A stretch of 64,000 bases of DNA, taken from IMG/VR virus record IMGVR_UViG_3300010049_000011, positions 81,123 to 145,122 of that record; one strand, given 5' to 3'. This document shows, piece by piece, positions 35,099 through 62,735 of this stretch (within the stretch, counting starts at the first letter, position 1; each line of letters starts with the position of its first letter). The notes beneath the pieces were generated by a model. It was given only the letters and a program-made list of their open reading frames with translations, was not told the origin of the DNA and searched no databases. The position numbers and the translations under genes are program-made. The DNA comes from a virus. Its lineage: Duplodnaviria; Caudoviricetes.

Positions 35099-36454
35099 TT
35101 GGTAGAGAAGAACTACAACGCGGACGAGGGGACTCAGAGGAAGATTTTAGGCCTTATAATCTCTGATAAGACTTACTTTCTTTCCACGGCGTCGGACACA
35201 ATAAAGGCTTCTTACTTTACCTCACAGATACATCAACTCATGTGTAGATGGGTTTTCGATTTTTACCAAAGATTCCCGGACAACCAGTGCACTGAATCTT
35301 TCCTTCAGGATATGCTAAAGAGGTATTCCACAACGTGTCGGTTCCGCTCAGACGTTTTAATGCGTTATGAAGAGGAGATAACTCTGATCTGCGAGTCGGA
35401 GATACTGGACGAGGACTACGTTAAAGAGCGGGTTCTTGAGTTCGCCAAAAGACAAGCGATGCACGAGGCTTTCCTGAAGTCCATAGAGATTTACGAGTCT
35501 CACGGAGAGACGGATAAAATAGAGCAAATCTGGAAAGAGGCCCTGTCTGTAGGAGGTGGGGATAATCTAGGAATAAACCTCCAAACAAGCCTTGAGGACT
35601 TCCCTGACAAATTAAAGAAGACATTTGATCGAGGGAGCCTGATTCAGACCCAGATTCCTGGGTTGGATGATTCTCTGTTAGGAGGAGTTGGAAAGGGAGA
35701 GCTACACATTCTGATGGCAGCGTCTGGAGGAGGAAAGTCGAAGGGTCTAGCTTACCTGACTAAGGCTGCCTTGTTACAATCTAAATCCGTCTTGCACATT
35801 ACCTTCGAAATATCTGAAGAGGAATCCCTAGCAAACATAGTGTCGTCGTTAACCGGTATGGGTTTGTTAGACCTAATAGATGAGGGAAAGAGAGAAGACT
35901 ACAAAAGGAGAGTCGAGAGATTCAAAAACCTCAACCTGAAACTGATGGTTAAAGAATTCCCGAACTATAGCGTCAACTGCAACAATCTCCGTGCTTACAT
36001 TATGAAGGTTATAAATAAGGAGAACTTTAAGCCGGATATAATCTTCCTAGACTATGCCGACCTTATCCTCCCGATAAAAAAGATTAAGAGTTCTGGGGAA
36101 GATAGTACCTACGAGGCCCTCGGGACGGTGTTTTACGATATAATAAACCTAGCAAAGACCTTTCAGGTTCCGATCTGGACTGCATCACAGACAAATAGAG
36201 GAGGGTGGAATTTGCAGGAGGAGGGTGTCATAACTATGGAGAACATAGCTGATAGTGCCCGCAAAGCCCACACGGCTCACTCCATAGTCACAATAAATAG
36301 CAACGCAACCGAGAAGAGGTTAGGTAAGGCCAGGCTGTACACAGCGAAGGTTAGACGAGGGAAGGACTTCCAGACCATACACGTGGACTTCGATAGGAAG
36401 AATTCGACAATAAAACAGATCGAGCCTTATACTGTAAAATCTCTCGAGGGATAG
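35099..36454 (+). CDS. Replicative DNA helicase (DnaB / T4 gp41-like)
   Basis: GG..KGEL....AASGGGKS, ITFE, IFLDYADL, IWTASQTNR, IADS..K, K.R.G. Confidence 0.92.
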   Translation: MVEKNYNADEGTQRKILGLIISDKTYFLSTASDTIKASYFTSQIHQLMCRWVFDFYQRFPDNQCTESFLQDMLKRYSTTCRFRSDVLMRYEEEITLICESEILDEDYVKERVLEFAKRQAMHEAFLKSIEIYESHGETDKIEQIWKEALSVGGGDNLGINLQTSLEDFPDKLKKTFDRGSLIQTQIPGLDDSLLGGVGKGELHILMAASGGGKSKGLAYLTKAALLQSKSVLHITFEISEEESLANIVSSLTGMGLLDLIDEGKREDYKRRVERFKNLNLKLMVKEFPNYSVNCNNLRAYIMKVINKENFKPDIIFLDYADLILPIKKIKSSGEDSTYEALGTVFYDIINLAKTFQVPIWTASQTNRGGWNLQEEGVITMENIADSARKAHTAHSIVTINSNATEKRLGKARLYTAKVRRGKDFQTIHVDFDRKNSTIKQIEPYTVKSLEG

Positions 36455-36456
36455 TT

Positions 36457-37053
36457 ATGGCTGTTGGGTTAGACATGCTTCTTCACAGGCCTAAGGAAAT
36501 TGGGAACATAAAGGTTCGCGACGTCCCGACAGAGAAATACACAAACAATAACTATAGTCGTAAAAACATTCTCTTAGGAGAACGTAGCGGGAATTCGACA
36601 TATCTTAGAGTATTAGGTTCGGTCCACTGGAATCGTGTTAAGTTTCCCTACCAGTCCTATGAGGTAGAACTTGAAGGAGGAGAGAAGATATACCTGTCTG
36701 GGAATCAAGAGGTTAGGACCGATCTCAGGGGGTGGGTCAGGGTTAAAGATCTCTACGAGGGAGAAGACCTGTATACATTCGAAGATTCGAAAAGATTCGG
36801 AAAGATATTTGAGAGGATAGAACATCACGGAGACTCAATCGAAGGCGCTTACGTCGCGATATCTAAAAACAGAGGCCTCCCCTTTAAATTAGAGAATGCT
36901 TTAGAGGAAGGAAAATCTATAGAAGAGTTTAGGGAGGAGAAGAAAGAGTTCTATAAAGACTGCCTCCAGAAAGCAATTGATTGGAGGAAGGACCAAGCTC
37001 TGAAGAAGTTTGAAAGTAAACTATACGGAGATGACAACGAAAACCATTATTAG
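36457..37053 (+). CDS. Protein with a degenerate Hint (IntN-like) domain
   Basis: YEVELEGGEKIYLSGNQEV.T..RGWVRVKDLYEGE resembles intein block B to N4 but lacks TxxH and the N-terminal Cys/Ser. Confidence 0.5.
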   Translation: MAVGLDMLLHRPKEIGNIKVRDVPTEKYTNNNYSRKNILLGERSGNSTYLRVLGSVHWNRVKFPYQSYEVELEGGEKIYLSGNQEVRTDLRGWVRVKDLYEGEDLYTFEDSKRFGKIFERIEHHGDSIEGAYVAISKNRGLPFKLENALEEGKSIEEFREEKKEFYKDCLQKAIDWRKDQALKKFESKLYGDDNENHY

Positions 37054-43088: not shown

Positions 43089-44908
43089 ATTTAAAAACAA
43101 TAAAATTACAAAATTTTAGGTCCTTCAAGAATTGCGAATTTGATGTGACTGAAGGTCTCTGGTTGGTGCAAGGAGAGAACCTAGACGACGGTATGTCGAG
43201 CGGGAACGGATCTGGGAAGAGTTCTTTGATCCTAGAGTCTATTCGGTGGTGTCTGTTCGGTTCCTCAAGAGACCCCGAGAAGGTTATTAATAACGCCGTC
43301 GGTAAGAATTGTTGCGTCTCCTTAGTGTTTGACAAGGACGGAGAAGAGGTGGTAATATCTAGGTATCGAAAGCATTCCGACTTCGAGAACGGTTTAAAAC
43401 TTTCTCTTGGAGGTCAAGAGGTTACTGGTTACAGAATAGCGGATACCCAGAAGAAGATAGAGGAGATACTAGGGGTTTCTGAGGATCTCTTTAATTCTCT
43501 GGTTGCTATGACCTACGATCTATCTGGGAGTTTCTCCCGACTGACTCCTGCTCAGAGGGTCGAGGTTTTAGAGTCTCTCGGGGTGTCTCAGAACTATGAC
43601 GAGATGAGGAATCGGGCGAGAACAGACTCTGCGGAAAGCAAACGAGAGATGCAACGTTTACAGGTTTCTCTGAGCGGGCTGCAGGGGTCCTTGGTCGAGA
43701 AGAAGAAAAGGTTAGACGATCTCGTGGAGGAATTAAGCAAGACTCCGGACGTAAAAGAACTCTCAGAGCAGAAAGCATCGGCCGATCAGGAAGTCGTGTT
43801 TCTCGAGAAGAACTTAGAGGGTATCCAAGAAAAAGTAAAAGAGCTTCCCTTTAAAATCTCAGAAACTAGGGACAACCTCGCTAATACTAAGGTAGGGATT
43901 CAAGAACATAATAACGAGTTAGATAAGAAAATTCTCACCCTATCTAGTGAAGAGTCTAACAATAATAAAGAAATTCATACAATAAAAAAGACCTTAGAGA
44001 GCGGTATATGTCCTGCCTGTAAGTCCGTTATTAAATCCTTCAGCGAATCCGAGAAGGCCGAATATACTTCGAAGATTATAGAGCTGGAGGGCAGGAACAA
44101 ATCTATAAACGAGGAGAAAGACTCCCTAAGTAAGTCTCGAAAGACCACAACCCCCGAGATCGAAGACTACGCTAAACTAATCACGCAACTAGAGTCTGAG
44201 CACCTCCAAATTAATAACGTAGTTCGGGAGATGCGGTCTAAGATCTTCACGGCCAAGACCCAGTCTAGTGTTATCGAGCAAAAGGTTTTAATCTTGTCGG
44301 AGAGTAAGGACAAACTGTTAATCGAACGCGAAATTAAACTAAAAGAAATAGACTTTGTTGAGGGGGAACAGAAAACTCTAACAGCGAGGGCTAGGGATGA
44401 ATCTAAAAAAGCAGCGATAGCGGATTACTTTTTTAAGACCCTATCTCCCGGAGGAGGTTTAAGGAATAAAATCCTCGAGAACACAATTAGATCTCTCAAC
44501 GTAACTCTCCACAAATACATCTCTAGGCTGTTCCAAAACTCCTTCGTAGAGATGGAAATTATAGACAAGAACATTGAGATTAAGTTTAAAGATGTGCGAG
44601 GAGAGAGAAGCGTAGAGACTCTATCCCAGGGAGAGATGCGGAGAGTAGACCTAGCGATACAGTTCGCTATATTAACTCTGGCTAAGAACTGTTCAAAGAC
44701 GGACTTTAATTTCCTCGTGTTAGATGAAGTTGGGATAGGTTTAGACGTTGTCGGTGTCCAGCAGATGATATCTCTCCTAGAGGTGTTGCAAGGGCGCATA
44801 CCTTCGATTTACGTTGTCTCGAACGACCCGATGTTCACTAATGCGATAGAGACACGCATTCTAGTCCGTAAGCAAGGTGGAGAGTCTAGAGTTGTCGGAA
44901 ACAATTAA
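43085..44908 (+). CDS. Recombination ATPase subunit (SbcC/Rad50/gp46-like)
   Basis: NFRSF, NGSGKSS, CPAC zinc hook, LSQGE, LVLDE. Confidence 0.93.
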   Translation: MNLKTIKLQNFRSFKNCEFDVTEGLWLVQGENLDDGMSSGNGSGKSSLILESIRWCLFGSSRDPEKVINNAVGKNCCVSLVFDKDGEEVVISRYRKHSDFENGLKLSLGGQEVTGYRIADTQKKIEEILGVSEDLFNSLVAMTYDLSGSFSRLTPAQRVEVLESLGVSQNYDEMRNRARTDSAESKREMQRLQVSLSGLQGSLVEKKKRLDDLVEELSKTPDVKELSEQKASADQEVVFLEKNLEGIQEKVKELPFKISETRDNLANTKVGIQEHNNELDKKILTLSSEESNNNKEIHTIKKTLESGICPACKSVIKSFSESEKAEYTSKIIELEGRNKSINEEKDSLSKSRKTTTPEIEDYAKLITQLESEHLQINNVVREMRSKIFTAKTQSSVIEQKVLILSESKDKLLIEREIKLKEIDFVEGEQKTLTARARDESKKAAIADYFFKTLSPGGGLRNKILENTIRSLNVTLHKYISRLFQNSFVEMEIIDKNIEIKFKDVRGERSVETLSQGEMRRVDLAIQFAILTLAKNCSKTDFNFLVLDEVGIGLDVVGVQQMISLLEVLQGRIPSIYVVSNDPMFTNAIETRILVRKQGGESRVVGNN

Positions 44909-47627
44909 CACAAAATTTAACATCATGGTTCCCTGGGCAGACGGGAAGGCCTGCCTAGAGAATGGTAGGATACTTCTTCTTTTTCGGGCCCCTGCGGGAG
45001 AGTACTTTACGGGTAAGGGAGAGGCTCGACAGTTTACAGATAAAATTCTCCCTGTTCGCATCAAGAACTATTTTAACATAATCAAGAACCAAGGGTTCGA
45101 TCTATACGGGGAATTCTTCGTGAACTATCTATGCTCCGAAACTCTCGGGACTAAGGACCCCGTCCCACACAACCAGATACCCCAAGGCTTGTCGGGTTTG
45201 GAGGGGTTGATCTCAAGCACTCCCTCAATTCAACTAGTGATGTTCGCAGGAACCAACACTTTCACCGAATTCTTCTCTGAAGAAAAGGTAGAGATGAAGG
45301 AGAAGGAAACAGGCGTAAAGGCTGTTAAGTCCGGTCTAAAGCAGGGAGTTGTCTACGAGATCGTATGGCGGAGTTTATCGTTCGAGTTTGTAATAACTCC
45401 CTCAGAATATTACTCAGATATGTTTGGGCAAGCGAGAGATGTTCAACACAAGAGATTTATCGAACAAGCGACAAGTTTATACAGATATCTGAACCCCGAT
45501 GTAGTCGAGGAAGACTACGGGGGTCTGGTGACCCCGGAAGAGTTTATAGAAACCCTCAAAAAGTACGAGGAGTGGTACCATTCCGGAGAGATAGATCGTA
45601 TCGGGTTCGATATAGAGACTACCGATTTTGACCCAACTAACGAGAACGCTAGGATCTGTATGTTCTCGATCGCAGATATGAAAACCCATCGAGGATATGC
45701 GGTAGCCCATTACCACCCCGAAGTCTGGATGTCGCAGAAGAAAAAGGAATACTGGACAGCTCTGTTGGGGAAACTACAGGTCCTCCAGAACGTAGTATCT
45801 GCGAACAACGAACACTTTGTTAAAGCCCTAACGATTGAACTTCAGGGGGTTAAGAAGGAGTGGGAACTACTTTTAAAGTCTACAGGAGAAGTTCCGTCGT
45901 CGGACGAAGACTCAATCATAGAGGCACTAGATACCTTCGTCGCCTTCTCGAGGCTAAAAGCGGTCAAGTACCCGAAGGACGAGTTCGAGTTTACTCTTCT
46001 GAAGATCAACACTCTATCCCAAAGCCTTAGGAAGCTGATAGCTTCGGACTACGACAGTAGGATCAAAGCAGTCGAAAAGCAACTAGACTCGACGCTGAGG
46101 AAAATCCCCTTAGTCGGGCATAACATTAAGTTCGACTTAGGTTGGTGTTACTCGAGAGGTATAGCTAACGACTGGATGAAGGTTTATGCGGATACCTATG
46201 CTTACGCTGTCGCCTTCGAGGGAGTCGAGGCCCCTAAGAACCTCGAAGATATCTCTATAAAAAAGCTAGGCGTCGATAACAAGTGGAAGTCTAAGTTTAA
46301 ATCCCACCCACGCCTGACTACTAGGTTGTGGGGCCTGAGGTATGATAACGTACCTTTAGATATTCTCGGACCGTACTCCTCGGGAGACGCTCTCGCTACT
46401 CTTCTGATAGAGGAAAAGTATAGGCCTGAGGCCGAGGAATTGAAGGTGTCTCCTCTCATGAAGGAAGTAAATATGGCTATAGAGGCCTACGCTTCGGCTG
46501 AGGCTGTGGGGTTCACTATTATCGAAGAAGATGCGAGAACCCTTTATCACCACCACAAGGAAAACCTAGAGAGGAATTTCTCGGAGATAAAGGCTATGAA
46601 AATGCCTCAGAAATTATTGGAAGATAACCCAGACCTCCAAGAAGAATGCGCTTTAAAGTTCGAGGGAGTCACTCGGTTATTCCGTATGAAGAAGGGAGAA
46701 GTCCTCCAGATAGCGGACGATAACCCTAACGGGCCGACTTTAAAGGAGTACACAGAACTCGAGGTCGGAGACAAAGTTTACGATAACGACGGAGAGTTAC
46801 GCGTCATAAAAGAAATTCGCTTGTCTGGGGGGTTCTCAATAACAAACACGGGAGCTAAATCTCACAGAGCTCAAGTCCTGTTTGGGAAGGATTACTACAA
46901 CATTCTCACAGATGTTAAGACAGAGACGGGAGAGTTCTCGACTAACACTAAGGAAGTATTGAAACCTCTCCAATCAAAGATCAGAGGTTGGTTGAAAGAA
47001 TACGAGGAAAACGGACAGGCTAACGAAGAATACATCCTCGAGATCGAGAGAAATAAAAAGGAACCACATTCTTACCCGATAACCTCTGAGAGGTATGAAA
47101 TCTTGAAGGAATGTCTGGAGTTCGTTACGAGACTAATAGACTACTCCGCAAGCAGTAAACTGTTTACGGCCTACCTGTCCCCCACTTTCGACGAGTTGAC
47201 TAACAAGGTTAAAGCACGGTTCCAAGGAGAGTTCAAGCTGGTTGGTGGGACGGTCTCGGGGAGAATGGCGTGTCTTCTCGGGGAAACTTTAATAGATACT
47301 GACTGCGGTATTTTACGCATAGATGATATTGTTGAGAATCAGAAGAAAGTTTCAATAAAATGCATTGATGAGTTGGGTAAAACTTCTTATAAAGAAGTGC
47401 AATCGTCCGTATGTAGTAAATTTGTAGACTGTTGGGTAGAGGTGGAATTGGAAGACGGTTCAGTAGTTAGGTGCACTCCCGATCACAGATTCGTTATAAA
47501 AAATCCGAGACCTTTAGATTGTAAAATAATTTACGAATTCGGAGTACCGTATAAGGAGGCTCAGTTCCTAAATTCGGACGATATCCTACAGACTGATAGA
47601 GCATATAAGGAGAAAGATGAGAATTAA
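44877..47627 (+). CDS. polA: DNA polymerase A, fragment 1: UDG-like N-terminus, 3'-5' exonuclease, thumb, ending in the N-half of a split intein
   Basis: FDIET, GHNIKFD and YSSGD exo motifs; TVSGRMA then CLLGET. Confidence 0.9.
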   Translation: MESLELSETINTKFNIMVPWADGKACLENGRILLLFRAPAGEYFTGKGEARQFTDKILPVRIKNYFNIIKNQGFDLYGEFFVNYLCSETLGTKDPVPHNQIPQGLSGLEGLISSTPSIQLVMFAGTNTFTEFFSEEKVEMKEKETGVKAVKSGLKQGVVYEIVWRSLSFEFVITPSEYYSDMFGQARDVQHKRFIEQATSLYRYLNPDVVEEDYGGLVTPEEFIETLKKYEEWYHSGEIDRIGFDIETTDFDPTNENARICMFSIADMKTHRGYAVAHYHPEVWMSQKKKEYWTALLGKLQVLQNVVSANNEHFVKALTIELQGVKKEWELLLKSTGEVPSSDEDSIIEALDTFVAFSRLKAVKYPKDEFEFTLLKINTLSQSLRKLIASDYDSRIKAVEKQLDSTLRKIPLVGHNIKFDLGWCYSRGIANDWMKVYADTYAYAVAFEGVEAPKNLEDISIKKLGVDNKWKSKFKSHPRLTTRLWGLRYDNVPLDILGPYSSGDALATLLIEEKYRPEAEELKVSPLMKEVNMAIEAYASAEAVGFTIIEEDARTLYHHHKENLERNFSEIKAMKMPQKLLEDNPDLQEECALKFEGVTRLFRMKKGEVLQIADDNPNGPTLKEYTELEVGDKVYDNDGELRVIKEIRLSGGFSITNTGAKSHRAQVLFGKDYYNILTDVKTETGEFSTNTKEVLKPLQSKIRGWLKEYEENGQANEEYILEIERNKKEPHSYPITSERYEILKECLEFVTRLIDYSASSKLFTAYLSPTFDELTNKVKARFQGEFKLVGGTVSGRMACLLGETLIDTDCGILRIDDIVENQKKVSIKCIDELGKTSYKEVQSSVCSKFVDCWVEVELEDGSVVRCTPDHRFVIKNPRPLDCKIIYEFGVPYKEAQFLNSDDILQTDRAYKEKDEN
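47271..47624 (+). mobile_element. Split intein N-fragment (118 aa)
   Basis: Cys1 CLLGETLI; block B VELEDGSVVRCTPDHRF; N4 YKEAQFL...D; then stop. Confidence 0.9.
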
Positions 47628-47862
47628 AGAAGTTAGATTTATAGGCGTTTCTGAGGATAGAAAAGTTCCTGTGTACGATCTTATTCTTGGATCCGATCCT
47701 CACAATTTTAAACTAGGTTGTGGGATTTTTGTCCACAACTCAAATTTTCACCTAGTTCCTCGACACGGGGGTATAAAGTGTATGTATACATCCCAATGGA
47801 ATTCGAGATCCAAGAGATTTGATCCAGGTTATAAAACCTCTAACTGGTCGTGTGAGGAGTAA
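47617..47862 (+). CDS. DNA polymerase A, fragment 2: split intein C-fragment (41 aa) + about 40-aa C-extein
   Basis: AAGGAG SD; MRIKEV...VYDL....PHNF....IFVHN then Ser+1 (47740) SNFHLVPR..IK.MYTS. Confidence 0.88.
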   Translation: MRIKEVRFIGVSEDRKVPVYDLILGSDPHNFKLGCGIFVHNSNFHLVPRHGGIKCMYTSQWNSRSKRFDPGYKTSNWSCEE

Positions 47863-47863
47863 T

Positions 47864-48067
47864 ATGGCAGGAAGGCCTAAGAAAGAAATCAAGCATCCGG
47901 CGTACTTTACGGTGTACGAAGACCCAATATTCCCTGGAAGGTGGAACGCTAGCGCTAGCGATTCTTCTTGCGCCTACAGCTGCTTTAATACTCCACAGGA
48001 GATGGCTGATTACGTGAAATCGAAGCACCCTAGTTCTGATATAAAAATAAGGGGGAAGGATGCCTAA
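47864..48067 (+). CDS. Small hypothetical protein inserted between polymerase fragments 2 and 3
   Basis: GAGGAG SD; 67 aa; its end overlaps the start of fragment 3. Confidence 0.6.
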   Translation: MAGRPKKEIKHPAYFTVYEDPIFPGRWNASASDSSCAYSCFNTPQEMADYVKSKHPSSDIKIRGKDA

Positions 48068-49217
48068 AGGAGGTCTAATTGGTTATCAGGATTTTAGTAC
48101 CCTTGAAATTCGCGTAATGGCTGCTTTGTCTAAGGACGAAGGTCTTATAAAGATCCTCAACTCTGGAGCCGACCTTCACTGCTCAACGGCTCAACAGATA
48201 TGGCCTAGTGAATTGGCAGGTAAATCTATTGAAGAGATTAAAGAGAAGTATGCCGAACACCGCAGTCGGGCTAAAGCCGCGATTTTCGGTATCGCGTACG
48301 GAGCTAGTGCTAATAGCTTGTCAGAGAGTTTTAACATCTCTCTAGCAGAAGCCCAGGGAATTGTTGATGGGTTGTTCCAAGGTTTCCCTGGGATCCCTGA
48401 GTTTATAAAAGAAAGCCACGCTCACGCAATAAAGCACGGATACGTCGTGACCGCTTTGGGTAGGAAAGTATTGATCCCCGACGCTTTGATAGACCTGAAC
48501 GATAAGACTAAGGTGGGTCTAAGAAACCATGCCCTAAGATTCAGCCAGAACGTCCGGATACAATCTCCGAGCTCTGAATTAGCGTACATCTGTTCGTCGC
48601 ATATCTGGGACGATTTTAAACTCTTAGGCATGAGATCTCGCTTACTGGGGTCTGTCCACGACTCAATAGAGTGCGACATATACCCAGGAGAACTGATAGA
48701 TCAGCTATACATCTATAAGTATCACGGAGAGATAGTTCCAAACACAATATATCCTTGGTTAAACGGGATAAAGATGAAGACTGATCAGGAGACGGGAGTG
48801 TCTTGGGGGCGCGGAGTAGAGGTTAAAAGATTCGGGTTTACCAAGGACCTAAACTACTTCGACGTTGTATACTCAGGAGGCAACACTAATATAAGACAGA
48901 TGCTCGAAGAGATGGATGGGTATTACGACTATGAAGTTATAGATAGGCTCGATAAAGACCCTTATGAAAAACCAGAGAACACTGTCTTAGAGCCCAACAC
49001 TCACGACGTCAAGATAACTCTGAGGTTAAAGAATAACTCGAGAGTGCTAAACCGAGAAACTGGGTTGATGGAATTTAAAAGCAAGTACCACATAGGAGAC
49101 CATACTAAGCTCGGACCGATACCCCCTTTTGGGGACATTGATCTCGATATTCAACAGGAACGAGACAGATCTGCTCAGAAAGAGTATCTTGAAGATGCAG
49201 TACACCAACTCAGATAG
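48060..49217 (+). CDS. polA: DNA polymerase A, fragment 3: palm and fingers (motifs A, B, C)
   Basis: DFSTLEIRV (A), DLH..TA, RSRAKAAIFGIAYG (B), N..IQS, VHDSIE (C). Confidence 0.93.
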   Translation: MPKGGLIGYQDFSTLEIRVMAALSKDEGLIKILNSGADLHCSTAQQIWPSELAGKSIEEIKEKYAEHRSRAKAAIFGIAYGASANSLSESFNISLAEAQGIVDGLFQGFPGIPEFIKESHAHAIKHGYVVTALGRKVLIPDALIDLNDKTKVGLRNHALRFSQNVRIQSPSSELAYICSSHIWDDFKLLGMRSRLLGSVHDSIECDIYPGELIDQLYIYKYHGEIVPNTIYPWLNGIKMKTDQETGVSWGRGVEVKRFGFTKDLNYFDVVYSGGNTNIRQMLEEMDGYYDYEVIDRLDKDPYEKPENTVLEPNTHDVKITLRLKNNSRVLNRETGLMEFKSKYHIGDHTKLGPIPPFGDIDLDIQQERDRSAQKEYLEDAVHQLR

Positions 49218-50101
49218 GGAGATAAATAATGCTGACAAGCGACGAACTAAATCAAGTATGTCCAACAGAATTCAACCCGAAGTTGAAGAAAGTAATCGTA
49301 TATTATGAGGAAGTTGAGGGAGAATACCCTAACGTGGTAAACGTACACTCCAGCCAACTCTCTAAAGGAGATCTTATAGAACTGTTCTCTAGATGCAGAG
49401 ATTTTGTGGAGGACTTGTGATGGAAAACAAGATTAAGAAACTTAACCTAACACCCGGAGAAGGTGGAGGACCTGTAGATGAGAGTGATAAGGATCGTGCA
49501 GAGAACGGGTTCAGAGGAATTTATAACGATTATTGGTTGAATTCTCCGATAGAAACTATTCCAATACTCTATAAGGCCTTAGAGAACGCTCGTACGGAAC
49601 CTACTAGACTTTCGTTAGTGACTGAATTAGAGCTACTTATAGGTTCAACAGAGCAATGCCACTGGATAATAGATTTAGGAGAACAGCAGAAAGCTGTAGA
49701 CTTCTGGGTAGATTTTTTCTCAAATCTAGATGCAACGATAGAGGAAGTCTTTGTGGAGAACCATCTCGAATACAGCCTATTAAAAATAAAGATAGAGCAT
49801 AAGGCGTTTCCTGGGGGTATTAGATTTACATCCCAACCTAACGGAAACTTAAACGAGGAGAAAACTGTACGTGAGAATAGTTAATATAAGTCTAGACGCA
49901 ACTGACTACAACGAGAAGGAAGTGGTATACGAAACTTCGAACCTCGAAGACCTAACGGATAAACAAGTTCAAAGAACCAGAGAGATTCTCATGGACGTAA
50001 CTAGGAAGCTCTGGCAGATCCAGCAGGATAGAAGTCCCGTAGCAGGCAAGAACGGTAATAGAGGAAAGTAAGCATTCTACGTCTCTGAAAGAGAGAATAC
50101 T

Positions 50102-52229: not shown

Positions 52230-52808
52230 GTGATGGATCTCATAGAAGCTAAGAAAGATGAGATCTTGAGGAGAATCGGATCCCTTACAGAATCCTCCAG
52301 CGACCTTGAGCGTAGACATACGTATTATTACGTGAAGAACCTACTAGAGGAGATCACGTCTACAGAGGATCTGAAAGAGTACGTAGAGGAATTCCTTCAA
52401 GCACCTCTAGATGTAGATGGGGGGAGGCACTCTCTCCTCGAGATGGTTACCGTGGCACATAAGAAAGACGGTATAGGTGTTATATTGAGAATATATAACG
52501 ACCACTTCCCTCCACATATCCACGTAGATTCTTACAGCGGCAAGACAATAACTAAGATAGAGCTGCCGCTAAGGCGCCCCGTAAGCGTCTCCGACGTACG
52601 ATCTATAGACAGACACTCCGAATTGAGTCTAAAGTTTAAGAAGAACATATTTGACTGGTTCCAGAGGGAATCTAAGATCTCTGGAAAGAGTAATTGGCTT
52701 TATTGTGTCTGGTCCTGGAATCAAGAGAACTGTGAAAATAGGTTCCAGATAGTTCCTGTTGACGGGAACTACGAGGAGTTTGAGTTAAAAGAAGCCTCTA
52801 TAGCATGA
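52230..52808 (+). CDS. DUF4160-like protein with N-terminal propeptide-like segment
   Basis: LLEM...I.NDHFPPHIHV ... I.DW......W. Confidence 0.6.
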   Translation: MMDLIEAKKDEILRRIGSLTESSSDLERRHTYYYVKNLLEEITSTEDLKEYVEEFLQAPLDVDGGRHSLLEMVTVAHKKDGIGVILRIYNDHFPPHIHVDSYSGKTITKIELPLRRPVSVSDVRSIDRHSELSLKFKKNIFDWFQRESKISGKSNWLYCVWSWNQENCENRFQIVPVDGNYEEFELKEASIA

Positions 52809-52867
52809 GGGTCGTGCAACGGTTTTGTAAACCGTGGGTGTTAGTTCGATTCTGACTAGAGGCACCA
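52794..52867 (+). tRNA. tRNA-Thr(TGT), CCA encoded
   Basis: GCCTCTA/TAGAGGC acceptor, ACGGT-ttTGTaa-ACCGT, GTTCGATTC. Confidence 0.9.
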
Positions 52868-53118
52868 AACAATAATAAAGGAACAATTATGATGTATAAA
52901 ATAAAAAAAAGTTCAGGACCTACTAAATATCCCGGAGGATAAGATCTCCTCTATGCTTGTGGACTTAGAGAGTTGGATAAGGAGTACTAAGGTTAAGAAG
53001 GACTTGATCGATAAAGTACCTGGTGTGGAGTCTTGTGAGTTCGGGTTTACATGGATAGATGATGGAAACCCGGGCAGGAGATCGACTGACACAAGCATAA
53101 TATATAAATAGTTAATAC

Positions 53119-53207
53119 GGATCTGTGGGAGAGAGGTTTAATCCAACGTCTTGGAAAGGCGTCGTACCCACAAGGTACCGTCAGTTCGAATCTGACCAGA
53201 TCCGCCA
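53119..53207 (+). tRNA. tRNA-Ser(GGA), CCA encoded
   Basis: GGATCTG/CAGATCC acceptor, ttGGAaa loop, long variable arm, GTTCGAATC. Confidence 0.93.
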
Positions 53208-53229
53208 TAAATCGTAGGTTCTACTCTCT

Positions 53230-53988
53230 ATGTTGAGATATTATCCCTTTTCAGAGCAAGTAAACCCCAGGCCCTTGGCGTTGTGGCAGTTCGTAGCAGG
53301 AGTTAGTGCCGTGTCAGAGTCTTCTGTCGACAACAACCACTTCGCTAGGTTAGCTACATCAGAATACGACTCTTTTGTGAAGGTCCTCCAGAGAGATTAC
53401 AGGTCTCCTCGAGAAATTCATAATACGGACTATCCAGGGATTGGGTTTGAAGTGAACAACATATTATACAATTTTCTGCCTAGAGGGTCTCTAGGAGAAG
53501 GAAGAGAGTTCGCGACAGATGACGAACACCCTAAGATGGTCCTCTTTGCTCTACTACCGGACCCACGCACCATAGACGTTTCCGTAGTTAACAAAATAAA
53601 ACATAGCAGAGAAGCTGTCGAGCATAAAATAACCCACGTCATGGATCAAGAGAGGGTTTCTGGATCACCGAGTCCTGGAGCTTATTACGAGTCTCCTAAA
53701 GCGTATTATAACGACCCCTTAGAGTATAATGCCTACTCTATGGAAATCCTAAAAACTGTTAGATACTCCCTTAAGCACGAGTGGAATACAAAACAACCCT
53801 CTATAGTGAAGAGAGAAGTTTGTACTTATCTACAGAGAGCTAGGGACGGTGCAGTTGTGTCGGGGTTCAGTAGACCTTTCGTTATGAACCTTACAGAGAA
53901 GAATTACGTTCGATTAGTGAACCGAGTAGTAAACTACGTAGACTACTTCTGGGACCCTAAAAAGAACCAGTATAACGTAGATCTTTAG
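53230..53988 (+). CDS. Zincin-like protein, paralog 1 (HKITH, catalytic Glu lost)
   Basis: Paralog of the next ORF (DYPGIGFEV..ILYNF.PRG; Y.N.PLEYNA). Confidence 0.6.
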   Translation: MLRYYPFSEQVNPRPLALWQFVAGVSAVSESSVDNNHFARLATSEYDSFVKVLQRDYRSPREIHNTDYPGIGFEVNNILYNFLPRGSLGEGREFATDDEHPKMVLFALLPDPRTIDVSVVNKIKHSREAVEHKITHVMDQERVSGSPSPGAYYESPKAYYNDPLEYNAYSMEILKTVRYSLKHEWNTKQPSIVKREVCTYLQRARDGAVVSGFSRPFVMNLTEKNYVRLVNRVVNYVDYFWDPKKNQYNVDL

Positions 53989-54001
53989 GTTCTACTCTCT
54001 A

Positions 54002-54760
54002 ATGCCTGTCACTAGCTCTAAAACTAAACATGCACCGAGAAGGAAACTCTCTACGTGGGAATTTATTGCAGGTATGTGCGAAGGTCTTTACGAATCTGTC
54101 GAGGAAAATAAGCATTTTAGGAAACTAGCAGACAAACATTACTCTATATTCCTTAATAAATTAGAGCGAAATTTTGATGATCCGGAGGTTATTGAGAACT
54201 CGGACTATCCAGGGATCGGGTTTGAAGTAGATAGCATCCTATACAACTTCCAGCCTAGAGGTAAGATCAAAGGAGCCTACGGAGTAGACGAGAACAATCC
54301 TAACATGATAATCCTCCCAATACTAGACGATCCTGCAGTTATAAGCTGGAGTAACGTTAAGAAGGTCAGGGAGGAATCTGACGCGATCACTCACGAATTA
54401 ATACACGTTATGAACTTTAGGAGATCTGAAGGACGAGCCAGAGCAGACGATTCAGGAGAAAGTGATGAGAGATATTTTAACAACCCCCTGGAGTATAACG
54501 CATTTTCTCACGAGATAATAGATCTAGCGAGGAAGAACGTAAAGTCCCTGAAAGACGCTGGTGAGTCCTTTATTAGAGCGAAGGCTAGAGTATTGGGTTT
54601 CCTTCAACTTGGGAGAGAAGGTAAACCTGGTGGGTATCGAGAGGATTTCTTATCTAATATATCTGAGAAGAACTATAAGAGACTTGTAGATAGAGTACTC
54701 ACTCACGTGGAGGATGTGTACGTTCAATCACAAGGCCATAATGGAGAATTACCTAAGTGA
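54002..54760 (+). CDS. Zincin-like metallopeptidase, paralog 2 (HELIH)
   Basis: HELIH plus downstream YFNNPLEYNA (third-ligand Glu). Confidence 0.65.
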   Translation: MPVTSSKTKHAPRRKLSTWEFIAGMCEGLYESVEENKHFRKLADKHYSIFLNKLERNFDDPEVIENSDYPGIGFEVDSILYNFQPRGKIKGAYGVDENNPNMIILPILDDPAVISWSNVKKVREESDAITHELIHVMNFRRSEGRARADDSGESDERYFNNPLEYNAFSHEIIDLARKNVKSLKDAGESFIRAKARVLGFLQLGREGKPGGYREDFLSNISEKNYKRLVDRVLTHVEDVYVQSQGHNGELPK

Positions 54761-54929
54761 AGTGTAAACAATGTAATACTAAACTAAGCACCTTCGACTT
54801 CCAGCAAGGGAAGTGTCTGAATTGCCAGCAGTATCTCACTGACTGGGAAAAGAACCAATTACTAAGAGAGTGGAAGAGAGATAGTTGGTTGAACCAGATC
54901 GGGTTTATGAGATGGGGGGGGATGCTTAA

Positions 54930-55301
54930 GTGAGTGTTTTAGTCTTAAACAAGAACTGTACTCTAATGTTCTCTTCTCCTCTAGTAGCAGGTACTGCAGA
55001 GTTCGAATCTGGAGAGTCTCCTAATGTCTACATAGAGAATTCAGAGGTCTTACTAGACCAATCTAACTTCACAGTCTCTGGTTGCGACGACGGGGTCAGT
55101 CTTCAGAATGCTCCAGAAGTACATCCTTTCCCTGCTGCTGTAGTTAAGACTTCCTTAGTGAATAATAAATCTCCTCTCTCTATAGATGATGTTTTAGAGG
55201 GAGTAGTTCAGGGGACTAACAAAACGACCGGATCTCCGGCCCCGATCAGCTTTAAGTTCACCGTATCGAATGCTGGTCAGTCTACCGTCTTCGCTTCGTA
55301 A
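54930..55301 (+). CDS. Putative baseplate spike-tip (PAAR-like) protein
   Basis: Small beta-rich protein with V.I....VL, V...PL..DD and C-terminal AGQSTV.A. Confidence 0.5.
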   Translation: MSVLVLNKNCTLMFSSPLVAGTAEFESGESPNVYIENSEVLLDQSNFTVSGCDDGVSLQNAPEVHPFPAAVVKTSLVNNKSPLSIDDVLEGVVQGTNKTTGSPAPISFKFTVSNAGQSTVFAS

Positions 55302-55303
55302 CC

Positions 55304-55385
55304 AAATTTATTTAACACCTTTGCTAGGTTCTTAGTTCAAAAACCAAATTTTCCGCTTGACTTTTGGAAAGAAATGTGCTATAGT
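55304..55385 (+). promoter_or_regulatory. Early sigma70-type promoter repeat, copy 6
   Basis: TTGACT (55357) -17- TATAGT (55380); CTTTGCTAGG at 55319-55328. Confidence 0.85.
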
Positions 55386-55415
55386 TGAAGTTATGAAAAG
55401 CAATAGGAGGATAGT

Positions 55416-55622
55416 ATGGCAACGCCATTGACAGTAGGGCAGTTAATAGAGCACTTGCGTGCCCTACCGCAAGACTTACCAGTTCGTATATCTCGTTTCG
55501 ACGAGCACTGCGACTATGGCGGTTGCACGCAGGATCATGATTTGGAGTTAAGCGATATTTCTATCCACCGCAGCTTTCCTCCAGCTAGGGAGCCACAAGC
55601 AGTAGTAATATACGGAGGCTAG
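55416..55622 (+). CDS. Small conserved phage protein
   Basis: LTVGQLIEHLRALPQDLPV motif; AGGAGG SD. Confidence 0.6.
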   Translation: MATPLTVGQLIEHLRALPQDLPVRISRFDEHCDYGGCTQDHDLELSDISIHRSFPPAREPQAVVIYGG

Positions 55623-56462
55623 TATGGAACGAACAAGACCGGTATATTACTTCGGGAAGAAGATTAAGAAGAAACCTTTGAACAACTACAGCACCTTAGG
55701 TCTGTGGAGGAACTATCGCGTAGGTTCTGTCGTAAGATTCAGATTAGGCCCAAGTAAGATTGTTGAAGGTAAGATCGGTTACGGACCGTTTAGGGACGTC
55801 GTCTACCGCAAGATTGCCTACTTTGTTCATGTTGATGGTTTTAAGTACGAAGTGCTCGAAGAAAAATTTATTAAGGATTAGCGTAACTGTGAATAATAGA
55901 CAGAACAAGTACGAACTAACACGTAAAGAACGAGAGCTACTAAAGAGAATATTACTCTCTGAGGAGAGAACTAAGCAGCTCAACGTTAGATTCTGTGAAT
56001 CGATTTTCTCTAGATTGAAGATCCCTGACCTAGCTAGGAACATACTACATAATAGGAATCACAAAGACTTCGAGAAGATACTGGCTTACTACTTTAAGTT
56101 AGCTAAGAAAATTCTCGAATCAACCAACTAAAGGAAGGACAACAACATGAGTAATGCAACAGTGTTCCAAGAGTCGTACAAAGAAGGCTACAGCAAAGGC
56201 AGGAAGGACTCCGGTCATAACGCTACTACATGTAGTGTAGTCCCTCGAAGCGATAAGGTAGACAACTACTTAAGAAACAACAAAGCTAGTTCTTCTGATG
56301 ACGCTCGAAGGCTTGGCTACAGCGCAGGGTATGCAGATGGTAAGAACGGCAGAGGAACCTTCTTCTAGACAACCATGAATAAGATGAAACAACTCAACGT
56401 GCTATATTATTACCCCACTCAGGTAGGTGAATAGGTCGTTGCACGTACAGTCGATTTGTCGT

Positions 56463-56496
56463 AAGGCCCTATTCAAAAGTCGAGTAGGGCCTTTTT
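56463..56496 (+). terminator. Rho-independent terminator
   Basis: AAGGCCCTATTC...GAGTAGGGCCTT followed by a T run. Confidence 0.75.
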
Positions 56497-56526
56497 GTGG
56501 TCTAGTTAAACATCGTGAATAAGAAA

Positions 56527-56609
56527 GCTCCCTTGGTGAAATTGGTATACACGCCAGATTTAGGTTCTGGTCCGAGAGGGTGTAAGTTCAAGTCTTACAG
56601 GGAGCACCA
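56527..56609 (+). tRNA. tRNA-Leu(TAG), CCA encoded
   Basis: GCTCCCT/AGGGAGC acceptor, CCAGA-ttTAGgt-TCTGG, variable arm. Confidence 0.9.
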
Positions 56610-56771
56610 AGCTTAGGTATGGCCTAAAGACGTGGAGAGTGTGATTAGACGGTGTAGATATCTAGATCCCTAATTGCGAATATAGTCTGAAATAACTCCA
56701 AGATAGTTAAGGCGCGTCCTCGCGGGAGAGGCGAGCTGTGTACTTAGTCGATACACTACCTAAAACAAGTT

Positions 56772-56847
56772 CGGAAAATATATCAATTGGTAGATTGCAT
56801 GGTTTGGGTCCATGTGGCTCCGAGTTCGAGTCTCGGTTTTCCGACCA
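56772..56847 (+). tRNA. tRNA-Pro(TGG), CCA encoded
   Basis: CGGAAAA/TTTTCCG acceptor, CATGG-ttTGGgt-CCATG, GTTCGAGTC. Confidence 0.9.
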
Positions 56848-56848
56848 A

Positions 56849-56936
56849 GGAAGAGTATTCTGATAGAGGGTCAGAGCAGTCTGTAAAACTGAGGCTTTAA
56901 TTGGTTCCGTAGGTGCGTCTCCTACCTCTTCCACCA
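56849..56936 (+). tRNA. tRNA-Tyr(GTA), CCA encoded, atypical T-loop
   Basis: GGAAGAG/CTCTTCC acceptor, ctGTAaa loop, long variable arm, T-loop TGCGTCT. Confidence 0.8.
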
Positions 56937-57400
56937 ATAACTTACAAGATCGTTCTCTATTACATGTTCGACCGTAAAAACGCATTACTAATGTACGCAG
57001 AGACTGAACACGATATCCTCCTGGGATACGTTGTAGGAGTACATGGGGGATTTAGGCTAGAGCTCTTGAAGAGATATAGAGATAGGTTTAGGAGGATGCC
57101 TAACGTTGTTGGTTACTGGGACGAAGAGTCTAGACTTGAGAATGTGGAGATCCCTGCTGGTGCCTACTACACTTTAGAGGGTGTTGCTCACTACAATTCG
57201 CGAGACGGTGTACTTTGGAACATTAAAAACCTAAGGATGGCTTCAGAGAAGGAAATAGAGGAATACGAACACCACAGAAAGTGGAATAAGAAAACATACG
57301 ACTGGATCTGTGATACATATTAGCGGTCATCTCGACGGTTGTACTTACCCTCGTTAAATAGATGACCTACGTGTTGTGGCGGTATCTAGTAAACAGTTTC

Positions 57401-57476
57401 TGGTAAGTAGCACAGCGGTAGTTGCTACGGTCTGTTAATCGAGTGGTCATGTGTTCGAATCACATCTTGCCAGCCA
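57401..57476 (+). tRNA. tRNA-Asn(GTT), imperfect anticodon stem
   Basis: TGGTAAG/CTTGCCA-G-CCA, ctGTTaa, GTTCGAATC; the anticodon stem pairs only with a 1-nt shift. Confidence 0.65.
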
Positions 57477-58046
57477 TTTCTTCTAAGTTTCCATGAAGAT
57501 TCACCAACACACATTCGAACAGATTTCAGTTAAAGATTTTATGTCTGAGCTAAAGAAAGTAGAGACGTCCGGCAGAAAGGTGTGTGGGATGTCGTATAGA
57601 GGACATCTAAAGGAAGGTAAGATCGAGTATTCCGGTGAGATCTACGATTTCAAAAAGGCTATACAGAAGTGAGTACTCAGAATCCTCGAACGACTCTCAA
57701 TAATCTAGAGAAGCAACTAGTTAACACGACGGACTGCGTTAAGAGGCTCAATATAGAGAAACGTATAAAAGAGATTAGATCCTCTATAGCTCAAGAGAAA
57801 GAAGAGCATGTTAAACGTAAATACAAGAGTTATGTAAAGTGAAGTGTCCCCACGGCTGCAGTAAGAAAGACTTAGGATTACAAGATTTCTTCTTTAGGCA
57901 GTGCTGTGGTTGTAAGACTCTATTAAGCCCTAATCAGATGGATACTCTCTATGAAGAGATTAAGGCTATGAATCACGCTAAAGCTCTCCACGTAGCAGAC
58001 AACGTCAGAGGTCCTGTTAAACAATAATCTTCTACGAATCAATCAA

Positions 58047-58121
58047 GCGGCGAGTATCTTAATTATTAGAGTACGAGCATTCCTGTTCGTTGTGTAGGTG
58101 TAAGTCCTATCTCCCGCTCCA
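58047..58121 (+). tRNA. Degenerate tRNA-Gly(TCC)-like
   Basis: GCGG...CCGC-T-CCA Gly-type acceptor with a bulge; TCC in an irregular loop; T-arm present. Confidence 0.55.
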
Positions 58122-59830
58122 AAACCTTCTCCTTCTACCACCATATTCTCGTAAACCTGTGTTGCTCTCAACAAGGTTTGTGGGCGCCGTTATAGGGCGT
58201 TATCTAAACTTTGAGGTGGCGAGATCCATCCAGGGTGCGAGCAGAGAGCATTAGCTCGAGAACACCCTGCAAACACTGTAGAGGGAGCCGTGTAGTAAAG
58301 CTTGCGGTTATTAGCAAGATACCGAGTTCCCTCCTTAAAAGAGAGTATTGCTTTGTTATCTTGCGGGTGTTACGGCTCGAGGGGGCATACAAGGACTTCA
58401 GAGACGCTCGCAAGAAGATAGAGAAAAGACTTAAGACTAGATTCTTCTAATTCCTATAGATACTATGGCCTTTCAATTCAACATCGGAGATACTGTGAGT
58501 TTCCCTAACTTTGGGTTTGCTTCAGAATTACTCGGTCAAGGGGAAGGTACGGTAGTAGATCAAGTAGACATTGGTGGGTCTAACTACTACAACCTCCAAG
58601 TACCTATCGGAGACTCCGGATCCTTTATACCGAACTTGGTTCAAATACCTGAGTCTCAACTTACCCTCGTATAATTCTTTTAACTGTTCGCTTATTCTAG
58701 ACCCCGCAATTACGGAGGTTGATGTCCAACACTTTTCCTAAAATCGGGTTCGTAAACCTTAAGAGGGTATCTGAGCGGGACCTTGAGGTTTCGTTTTCTC
58801 TCGAGAATTTCTCCAAACTTACCCACGAAGATAACAGCACCGTGGGTCCTTTCGAGTTGACTTTTGAGAGAATATCGTCCTTAGATACGTCTCTACTCTC
58901 CGTGAGTTATACGTTTGACGAGAACGGGGTTCTTCACTCTATGACTCTCTATGGAAAGAACGAGAGATTAACTAGAGATACCACAACTGTTTCCGGAGGA
59001 GACCCTCGAGAGAGAAGAGTCTCTTGTACTTACCAACACAGAAACGATCTACTGGTGGTGTCTCTACAAAACCTAAGTAAACATCGCTTAGAGGAAATAT
59101 ATAGATTTCTTGTAGATATCCACGAAAACCAGAAATCGACCAGATCCTAAGCAATACATAATTCTAGGAGGAAGCTGTAGTGGCTTTTCTCTATTCTATA
59201 TCTCTCTAGATAGACACTCTAAAATGGGTTCTGAACACGTAATACTATCTCTAGGAGGCAACACTCCCGAACAACAACAAGTATGTCTCGGGGAGCTGTT
59301 AGGTATGAATAAACTCAACAACACAACTAGACCAACCCAGAACACCTTCTCTTGCTCCTTCGAACTACTCCACGACACTCCTCAGTCGACTTACATACAA
59401 TTCCTAAACCTCGTTAACTTCGAGCGTAGAGCGTCCATTTGTACTCCTTACAACACCACTTGCACAATACACTGTCTATTAAACCGTCCCCCTAAATATA
59501 TAAAGAAACTTATCCAGTATATAGATACCTCTCTTAAGTTTAAGATTGTCTTAAGAGAGATCGAAGCACGTTCGAGGGAAGCTCTGTCTTCGAGCTCTGA
59601 GGCCCTGCTGAGGTCTATAGAGTCTACCTGTCCCTCCCTTATCGTCGTGTTCTAAATCTCGATACATACCTCTACTTTCCTATAGATTCTTGTAGGCAAT
59701 TCGTGTTCAACAGTGCCCCTAATAAGTCTGGACGTAAGACGTTTCTCTCGTACCCTTACAGAGAGAATCCTGCGATTGATAACGCTCTCCCAGATTCAAT
59801 ACAGGTAGACGACGTTGCAGGATTGCCGGA

Positions 59831-60199
59831 TTGCCGGAAGCTCTCGAGGATGCTATAGTTGGGGGTTCTTCCCTGACTGAAATTAACGTCCCCTTCCTGT
59901 TTAACGTCGAAGGAACCGTTACATACCAGAATTCTCTTACGGCTGACTTGATTCTGCAGTCATCTCTCTCGGGAGACTTAATAATACAGAGTTCCTTAGA
60001 TGCTGCATCTATAGACTGGACTATTACATCAGCTATAAACGCTATCCCCGAAGAGAAGTACATATTAGGACAAAAGCTTACGTTCAACGTCAACACTATG
60101 GCCGTCTGGGAGACCTACCAGTTCGTAGGATTGGATCTCTCTACGGCCACATACCAATCTGCTGCAAATTGGGTAAAACTCTACTCAACTAATCCATAG
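59831..60199 (+). CDS. Probable virion-associated protein (start uncertain)
   Basis: GQKLTF......WE.YQF.G ...NW.K pattern, directly upstream of a fibre gene. Confidence 0.4.
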   Translation: MPEALEDAIVGGSSLTEINVPFLFNVEGTVTYQNSLTADLILQSSLSGDLIIQSSLDAASIDWTITSAINAIPEEKYILGQKLTFNVNTMAVWETYQFVGLDLSTATYQSAANWVKLYSTNP

Positions 60200-60209
60200 G
60201 AAACTATAA

Positions 60210-62057: not shown

Positions 62058-62147
62058 TTGTAGGTGATAGATTCTAAATAAATGTGGTTGCCGAAAGGGA
62101 CCGCTACTCTACTATAACAATAACTTGCTGTAACCACAGGAGTAATC

Positions 62148-62636
62148 ATGGAACAGAAAACGCTCGTACTACGTAAACGTACAACCACAACCCCCTTTAA
62201 TAACGACCCTCTAAAGAATCTCTTACGAGACTTTTTCGGTGTTGGAACAACTCTATTGGACACCATGCCTGTTAGGTATTTTCTTCCTGAAGAGCAATCC
62301 TATCCTCGTTACGATGTAATAGATAGATCAATTGAGGGTAAAACTAATTCTATAGAGATAAGGATGGCTCTAGCTGGGTGGTCTAAGGAGGACCTAGAGA
62401 TAACCTCCAAGGACGGTTACTTAGTTGTCTCAGGAATCATGAACCGCGAAGGCAAGCCCGTCGAGGACGTATCTTATTACCGACGAGGGATATCTGCGAA
62501 AGACTTTGAGTGGAGCGGTAAGATGCCTGAGGACTCTGTTGTAGGGGGCATATCTCTTACAGACGGTATACTCTCCATTAAAGTGTCTAGAGAAATCCCT
62601 GAAGTTGAGAAGACTAAAACCTACAAAATAACTTAA
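62148..62636 (+). CDS. Small heat-shock protein (Hsp20/IbpA-like)
   Basis: YPRYDV, IRMALAGW.KEDLEI...L.VSG, Y.RGIS...F, DGILSI. Confidence 0.92.
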   Translation: MEQKTLVLRKRTTTTPFNNDPLKNLLRDFFGVGTTLLDTMPVRYFLPEEQSYPRYDVIDRSIEGKTNSIEIRMALAGWSKEDLEITSKDGYLVVSGIMNREGKPVEDVSYYRRGISAKDFEWSGKMPEDSVVGGISLTDGILSIKVSREIPEVEKTKTYKIT

Positions 62637-62690
62637 AACATTCCAGCAGATAATCGGTCCTTGGTGGATTGGGAAGTACTGCAGTGAATA

Positions 62691-62723
62691 GACCCTCTTT
62701 ATCCCCATGAAGAGGGTCCTTTT
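62691..62723 (+). terminator. Rho-independent terminator
   Basis: GACCCTCTTTAT-CCCC-ATGAAGAGGGTC followed by CTTTT. Confidence 0.7.
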
Positions 62724-62735
62724 ATAGCTAAAAAC

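Follow-up and report, generated by a model that had tools for sequence, protein, structure and literature searches.

A family A DNA polymerase of a termite-gut phage encoded in pieces: a putative natural split intein and a second, intein-free break before motif A

Natural split inteins have been described in fractured replication genes of phages and metagenomes, including gp41-1, NrdJ-1, IMPDH-1 and DnaE, and PolA is not among the eight host enzyme types reported there (Dassa et al. 2009, PMC2677866). Genes in pieces without inteins are also known, such as Aeh1 NrdA-a/mobE/NrdA-b and the T4-like split gp43, and these are often linked to homing endonucleases (PMC2677866). Among family A polymerases, an intein-free split of PolA with its break between the exonuclease (exo) and polymerase (pol) parts has been reported in T7-like cyanophage clade B (PMC12695635), and the OM43 phages MEP401 and MEP402 carry a PolA split over gp13, gp14 and gp15 (PMC10580990, OP830906), for which the authors left open the choice between an intron and a true split (PMC10580990). 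Our literature search for split inteins in family A polymerases found no description. Here we analyzed a locus (44877-49217) within a 64,000-nucleotide (nt) stretch of viral DNA, positions 81,123 to 145,122 of the record IMGVR_UViG_3300010049_000011, which we call the window and whose coordinates are used below. The 145-kb virus record comes from a termite-gut metagenome and has an estimated completeness of 58%. Four open reading frames (ORFs), namely ORF1, ORF2, a 67-amino-acid (aa) ORFx and ORF3, lie there in a row on the plus strand, each in the +1 frame with respect to the preceding one. We propose, with a probability of about 0.72, that these four coupled cistrons would produce a family A DNA polymerase by protein trans-splicing of a split intein (N- and C-terminal halves, IntN and IntC), followed by non-covalent pairing of the spliced N-chain with the ORF3 product. 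The features of the locus are the following:

44877-47627, plus strand: ORF1, 916 aa if counted from the first GTG and 900 aa in the database gene call P0008, which starts at ATG 44925
44877..47270, plus strand: N-extein of ORF1, with N-terminal domain, 3'-5' exonuclease, N-terminal palm and thumb; ends ...VSGRMA
47271-47624, plus strand, TAA stop at 47625-47627: IntN, 118 aa, CLLGETL...TPDHRF...KEKDEN
47607-47612, plus strand: Shine-Dalgarno (SD) sequence AAGGAG, within the 3' end of ORF1 and 4 nt ahead of the ORF2 ATG
47617-47862, plus strand: ORF2, 81 aa made up of a 41-aa IntC and a 40-aa extein; starts inside ORF1
47617..47739, plus strand: IntC, 41 aa, MRIKEV...VPVYDL...HNF...GIFVHN
47740..47862, plus strand: C-extein micro-exon, 40 aa (Ser + 39), SNFHLVPRHGGIKCMYTSQW... 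plus a short tail and a TAA stop
47864-48067, plus strand: ORFx, 67 aa, with a GAGGAG SD 4 nt ahead of its start
48060-49217, plus strand: ORF3, 385 aa, starting MPKGGLIGYQ-DFSTLEIR; motif A, fingers with motif B, motif C (VHDS) and a C-terminal domain

ORF1 and ORF2 overlap by 11 nt, ORF2 and ORFx are separated by a 1-nt gap, and ORFx and ORF3 overlap by 8 nt. The true start of ORF1 is likely ATG 44925, which is the P0008 start and corresponds to residue 17. A strong SD six-mer stands ahead of only 17 of the 752 ATGs in the window (2.3%), and both ORF2 and ORFx have one. Furthermore, all four ORFs showed gene-like codon usage in their own frame only, and a scan of the locus for promoters and terminators gave none above the shuffled expectation. 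The initial annotation of this DNA had proposed that ORF1 ends in ...GRMA and a 118-aa IntN, that ORF2 has its own AAGGAG and ATG and encodes a 41-aa IntC ending in HN/S before about 40 aa of extein (slashes mark intein boundaries), and that ORF3 starts just before motif A. The ORF listing agrees with the first of these proposals, the sequence with the second, and the ORF listing together with a Pfam match beginning at motif A with the third.

In several respects the locus resembles the fractured genes. In both, the loop between blocks B and F is where a class 1 intein is divided, with IntN upstream and an IntC of ~40 aa downstream, the nucleophiles are Cys1 and Ser+1, and the intein sits at a conserved catalytic motif of a phage replication enzyme. 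It differs from them in that the host is a family A polymerase with a C-extein of only 40 residues, and in that no free-standing endonuclease gene lies between the intein halves, which overlap by 11 nt instead, as the initial annotation had pointed out. In addition, the nearest solved relatives of the intein by sequence are DnaE inteins and not gp41-1. This arrangement corresponds to the 'endonuclease lost' stage of the model in PMC2677866. As in cyanobacterial DnaE and Nanoarchaeum PolB, a replicative polymerase would be made from two genes by trans-splicing, but those enzymes belong to families C and B, their halves are genomically unlinked and they have no extra non-covalent split. With Aeh1 NrdA and split gp43 the locus shares the organization, predicted here, of an essential replication enzyme as two polypeptides that assemble non-covalently; in contrast to them it has no endonuclease gene, and endonuclease-like genes at the break were seen only in relatives (L002-L004, L022). 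New here are the host enzyme, the lack of an endonuclease, the tiny C-extein and the pairing of the intein with a second, non-covalent split. Protein trans-splicing and non-covalent assembly would meet in one essential enzyme within 450 nt, which makes the locus a compact model for functional gene fragmentation.

The locus encodes the only family A DNA polymerase found in this phage. Pfam placed DNA_pol_A_exo1 (PF01612, 7.6e-08) in ORF1 and DNA_pol_A (PF00476, 1.8e-39) in ORF3, the latter covering profile positions 157-347, from motif A onwards, and this was the single PF00476 match in the 145-kb record. ORF1 also matched the DNA polymerase family PHROG_17. A 3'-5' exonuclease and motifs A, B and C of family A are therefore present over ORF1 and ORF3 together, and the ORF3 motifs DFSTLEIR, RSRAKAAIFGIAYG and VHDS align with those of relatives. 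ORF1 is 33% identical over residues 190-798 to the N-piece of the polymerase of a jumbo phage, G001 (IMGVR_UViG_3300013426_000013; 313,762 bp, CheckV 100%), and ORF3 is 40-43% identical to the stand-alone C-pieces P0002, P0003 and L005. The C-terminal domain of ORF3, of ~170 aa, is lineage-specific and common to the closest relatives. In the JGI metagenomes the best match reached 34-38% identity, with no close relative. By eye, ORF1 carries an insert of ~55 aa in the thumb region (46647-46878) when compared with the G001 N-piece.

The intein encoded by ORF1 and ORF2 retains Cys1, TxxH, the block F Asp, the terminal His-Asn and Ser+1. In block A, a Cys directly follows the extein motif (...SGRMA/CLLGETLIDT) and aligns with Cys1 of four homologous inteins. 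The block B motif TPDH aligns with TPDH, TPEH and SVDH in relatives and with TKDH of the solved DnaE inteins, and blocks F and G read VPVYDL...HNF...GIFVHN/S. IntN matched the solved DnaE split inteins with an E-value of 1.6e-06 and was 32-35% identical to cis and split relatives, with 35% for the split intein in DnaB of G001. The Pfam family Intein_splicing (PF14890) scored 18.8 bits on ORF1 residues 813-875, below its cut-off of 35.8, as is expected because only the IntN half was scored. We conclude that the element is homologous to inteins because of its matches to the solved DnaE inteins and its alignment with the four homologous inteins.

Removal of the intein restores a continuous host protein. 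The resulting GRMA+SNFHLVPRHGGIK... matches TGRLSSGFHLxPK..D(I/V)KK of the relatives, and over a longer span the junction GRMA-SNFHLVPRHGGIKCMYTSQWNSRSKRF can be set against the uninterrupted TGRLSS(G/R)FH(L/T)xPKxxD(I/V)KKLxxSAWNxxSxR. The ORF2 extein scored 36 bits against a profile of the relatives (E 3e-13, single comparison) and matched the G001 N-piece in BLASTP (1e-06). These similarities suggest that the ORF2 extein completes motif 2 and supplies the first hairpin strand before motif A.

When joined, IntN and IntC were 31-35% identical to the four homologous inteins. Two of these are cis mini-inteins within the polymerase C-pieces P0002 and P0003 of the relatives, the third is a split intein at the P-loop of the G001 DnaB-like helicase (35% identity, halves 107 nt apart), and the fourth is the PolA split intein of contig L020, whose halves are 55 nt apart. 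The L020 insertion (TGRL/C...VHN/SSGFH) lies one residue off the site used here, and its IntC, which aligns with ours as does that of the G001 DnaB intein, likewise starts with MRIK. The three split inteins share one break site, a variable loop that separates the YKxAxxL helix from the first IntC strand and is the canonical loop between blocks B and F where endonucleases are inserted. The homologous cis mini-inteins have 136-153 aa, against 159 aa for IntN plus IntC. The splicing residues, the restored extein motif and the homologous split inteins thus back the natural split intein put forward in the initial annotation.

Given that the intein is truly split, active trans-splicing is probable. 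Alternatively, the two halves could bind each other without splicing, so that the intein would serve only as a clasp in a non-covalent assembly of ORF1, ORF2 and ORF3, perhaps with ORFx. IntN is indeed long (118 aa) and carries a 13-aa insert after block B, which could fit such a role. However, many relatives of the intein have the same insert and the intein has lost none of its catalytic positions (Cys1, TxxH, the block F Asp, His-Asn, Ser+1), and we regard binding without splicing as very unlikely. The split intein in DnaB of G001 (L015 515-2454, minus strand) shares this insert and the cis relatives are without it, which hints that an already split intein may have moved between host genes.

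An exhaustive phmmer search with ORF1 gave 12 cluster representatives (clusters at 50% identity) of PolA N-fragments that end 98-107 aa past TGRL(S)/C, that is, at least 12 split PolA lineages, and ~11 representatives with cis inteins at the same TGRL(S) site. Next to one of these fragments (P0084), the following gene overlaps by 11 nt, as in ORF1 and ORF2, and in another (P0070) a 240-aa gene lies between the PolA N-fragment and a PF00476 gene. The TGRLSS motif of family A polymerases therefore hosts a populated metagenome class of split inteins (at least 12 clusters) that is apparently undescribed. Additionally, the intein analyzed here is a reasonable candidate for an orthogonal trans-splicing tool, with Cys1, Ser+1, a 41-aa IntC and a very short native C-extein. 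The motif following block B is common to a wider intein family, in which many members are either split or joined to GIY-YIG-like sequence. Close IntN relatives in RNR-like and SbcC-like hosts (P0041, P0055, P0062 and P0076) have an in-frame GIY-YIG-like extension (YVYxLIDNRP...KPFYIGI). The PolA of L020 (5001-9288) bears a UDG domain at its N-terminus and contains three inteins, namely a split one at TGRL/C and two in cis, after HTLPKK and in motif B.

The second break, between the C-extein and motif A, has no intein. The closest relatives of ORF3 are stand-alone genes that start 12-17 residues before (R/K)GGG-x-IL-x-x-DFS, and three independent assemblies (L002, L003 and L004) have the same C-piece start. 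The G001 N-piece is uninterrupted at the intein site of our phage and ends ~60 residues past ...CSAW; it lies at ~287-289 kb on the plus strand, ~25 kb from the C-piece, which occupies the start of the contig on the minus strand. In L021 the genes for the two pieces lie side by side and share one base (TAATG), in L022 a zinc-finger gene directly follows the N-piece, and L023 has the same SbcD-SbcC-PolN order as the window and no C-piece within 6 kb. Across this jumbo lineage (G001 and the ENA and Logan contigs L002-L004 and L021-L023) the pieces are adjacent, parted by an apparently mobile DUF7487 gene or 25 kb apart. These phages share with ours the break and the C-terminal domain and are rich in inteins; they differ in having no intein at TGRLSS and in carrying a tail and a leader that are absent here. 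More distant relatives (P0011, P0012 and P0014) have a contiguous PolA with a loop of ~30 residues at the position of the break.

In MEP401 (L031 6111-8221, OP830906) the same loop is interrupted, between the strand following TGRLSS/NLQN and the strand of motif A. Its gp13 ends ...LFLSRYGE, gp15 starts MILNADAKALEW, and the 77-aa helical gp14 lies between them, as the 67-aa ORFx does here. In our locus, likewise, the N-piece ends after the strand following TGRLSS/xFHxxP and the C-piece starts at the strand of the motif A Asp. MEP401 differs in being a podovirus of the Zobellviridae with a 43-kb genome and no intein, and the two small ORFs are dissimilar to each other. Because the relatives and MEP401 are broken in the same loop, the intein-free split is a lineage trait and a recurrent break point rather than damage, and it is very probably real and functional. 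The second split claimed in the initial annotation is in agreement with the separate N and C pieces of the relatives and with gp13, gp14 and gp15 of MEP401. The occurrence of the break before motif A in unrelated families (the jumbo lineage and Zobellviridae MEP401) marks a permissive or targeted site in PolA, and its recurrence bears on the intron question raised for MEP401.

A continuous product could also be made if the ~260 nt between ORF2 and ORF3 were bypassed or were a self-splicing intron. Phage PolA genes with group I introns are on record (literature cited in PMC10580990 and PMC2677866), and the MEP401 authors raised this possibility for their own split (PMC10580990). However, an Rfam search of 47000-48600 with lax filters returned nothing at E<=10 and no match to a group I or group II intron model, and the RNA fold of the 281-nt interval had a z-score of 0.20, no better than shuffled sequence. 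Furthermore, the interval is occupied by an ORF that has a strong SD and whose codon usage is gene-like, and in relatives the two pieces are unlinked or overlap by one base, which leaves an intron hardly tenable.

ORFx is a real coding sequence. Its codon-usage score was 0.40 per codon, compared with 0.33 +/- 0.10 for the genes of this phage, and exceeded every off-frame window. The initial annotation had set it aside as an unrelated 67-aa ORF; its presence is correct, and its gene-like codon usage speaks against its dismissal as filler. The protein begins MAGRPKK (GRPKK), and structure prediction (ESM Atlas pTM 0.61, AF2 pLDDT 67) gives it a small beta-beta-beta-alpha-beta domain. No sequence relatives were found by Pfam or PHROG. 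Its structural neighbours in the ESM Atlas, DUF1508 and DUF2188, reached a TM of only 0.63-0.70, Foldseek against the PDB gave nothing at E<=0.001, the best VIA-align Z of 5.1 (AcrIF5) was within the noise range, and neither of the two structure comparisons, Foldseek and VIA-align, matched the model to an intein. By eye, ORFx is collinear with the N-tail and C-leader of the relatives (VxYED, an IKI strand, and PLTG in another frame), which is a weak lead. As a candidate for the tail of the relatives' N-piece it was rejected, since BLASTP and profile searches found nothing and joining the ORF2 and ORFx frames brought no gain. It is possible, and in our judgement unlikely, that ORFx descends from the relatives' tail and leader insert, was detached by the +1 changes and is now a third subunit of a four-gene, three-chain polymerase. 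Its GRPKK DNA-hook and small alpha/beta domain would then bridge or load the spliced N-chain and the C-chain, and assembly would include one covalent (intein) step and two non-covalent ones. The 'two-chain' enzyme of the initial annotation could in this way have a small third protein.

In the assembly that we favor, ORF1 would yield the exonuclease and thumb through ...GRMA fused to IntN, and ORF2, translated from its own SD and ATG within the end of ORF1, would yield IntC fused to the 40-residue C-extein. IntN and IntC would associate and trans-splice to give an N-chain of 838 residues (822 from the ATG start), in which the junction GRMA-SNFHLVPR would restore the TGRLSS-xFHxxP motif and the first beta-hairpin strand before motif A. 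The N-chain would then bind ORF3 non-covalently, and from ORF3 would come the fingers, motif C and the second strand of the hairpin, the one that bears the motif A Asp. Non-covalent binding of ORF3 is proposed because the N and C pieces of the nearest relatives are always separate genes. In addition, the tight coupling of the cistrons would give matched amounts of each product, with a presumed 1:1 coupling of the chains.

Several points weigh against this assembly. The record is 58% complete and a second polymerase could sit outside it. Close relatives (>43% identity) were found neither by blastn against phages, nor in IMG/VR with ORF3, nor in word searches with ORF1 and ORF2. ORF3 has no counterpart of the 12-17-aa leader of the relatives, and the spliced N-chain has none of their 30-60-aa tail; therefore, assembly may be weaker or need another factor. 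At the DNA level, the 56 nt at 47572-47627 are open in the frames of both ORF1 and ORF2, and one base different within them would make a cis mini-intein of 156-159 aa. Furthermore, X1 and X2, of which X2 is the sequencing run used below, have their longest record in common. They may represent the source sample, or one data set deposited twice, and are not an independent sample.

These last points are those on which a contiguous cis mini-intein would rest, the frame change between ORF1 and ORF2 being in that case a sequencing or consensus error in a short A-rich stretch. Its 159 aa would be a normal size, given the 136-153 aa of the homologous cis forms. However, over 44500-49500 the window is matched by a Logan contig of run X2 (17.8 kb, word depth 12.8) with 0 substitutions and 0 indels. 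Of the other runs, X1 gave an isolated match of only 35 nt, and X3 and X4 gave none. An assembler artefact is excluded because the contig of this second assembler is identical to the window, and the frame change that the initial annotation had set against a contiguous intein is reproduced in it with no indel. The 2.7 kb of ORF1 are open, yet three frame changes fall within 450 nt, each followed by an ATG with an SD, and random sequencing error does not yield such clustered, SD-equipped frame changes. The homologous inteins are, moreover, unambiguously split in the same loop, with spacers. A cis mini-intein is thus highly improbable, and the intein is very probably split at the DNA level. Reading of the stops under an alternative genetic code was also rejected, as the window tRNAs include no suppressor and another stop follows within three codons of the ORF1 TAA.

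The same overlaps would be compatible with programmed +1 frameshifting from ORF1 into ORF2, giving a cis intein, and maybe from ORF2 through ORFx into ORF3, giving one long polypeptide, since the frame moves by +1 from one ORF to the next, and neighbouring ORFs overlap where both frames stay open over a short distance. By eye, the ORFx frame also reads PLTG after ...PGYK, like PG-x-R-Y-x-P-x-x-G of the relatives. Against frameshifting, no known +1 shift motif (CUU UGA, CCC UGA or similar) is present, every downstream ORF has its own ATG and SD, and the joined ORF2 and ORFx frames gained nothing against the family profile. Joining is also unneeded, since the N and C genes of relatives lie 25 kb apart, and we find this explanation scarcely credible.

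Lastly, the ORFs could be functionless fragments left by decay of the polymerase gene in a phage variant that is defective or host-dependent. Three frame breaks within 450 nt, the absence of the relatives' tail and leader at the second break and the incompleteness of the virus record could all be read in this sense. In contrast, motifs A, B and C are preserved, as is every one of the intein residues, the four ORFs are gene-like in their own frame only, each with an SD and a start codon, and a split architecture is the norm in the lineage. We consider decay very unlikely indeed, and production of the polymerase by trans-splicing and non-covalent pairing remains the explanation that we prefer.

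Additional observations were made on the relatives and on neighbouring genes. A DUF7487 gene of 371 aa lies directly upstream of the C-piece in L002 (6867-7982), L003 (3984-5099) and L004 (271-1386) and is absent in the syntenic L005. By eye it shows Cys pairs like those of zinc ribbons, KERYGVE repeats and a C-terminus resembling a nuclease, and it looks like a mobile gene of the homing-endonuclease type. The N-piece tails of L016 (1939-2148), L021 (8200-8409) and L022 (947-1156) share a (V/I)xVx(Y/L)EDG strand-turn-strand that resembles, without statistical support, the intein strand before block B (VEVELEDG in IntN), and the C-piece leaders KKIKAIKPV and KKIQQIVAH resemble the first IntC strand, likewise without statistical support. 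A profile of these tails gave weak matches to the IntN strand VEVELEDG (E about 1), and a reading of the tails as intein remnants found no support in Pfam, which detected no intein in them. The DnaB-like helicase of the window (35099-37053) is contiguous and has no P-loop intein; a 198-aa ORF starts 2 nt after it and is the top match of the N-tail profile, at a non-significant E-value (0.19). Downstream of the locus, a cluster of six tRNAs (52794-63122) includes one at 57401-57476 that ARAGORN reports with undetermined identity and a two-base anticodon and that the Rfam tRNA model scores at 34 bits.

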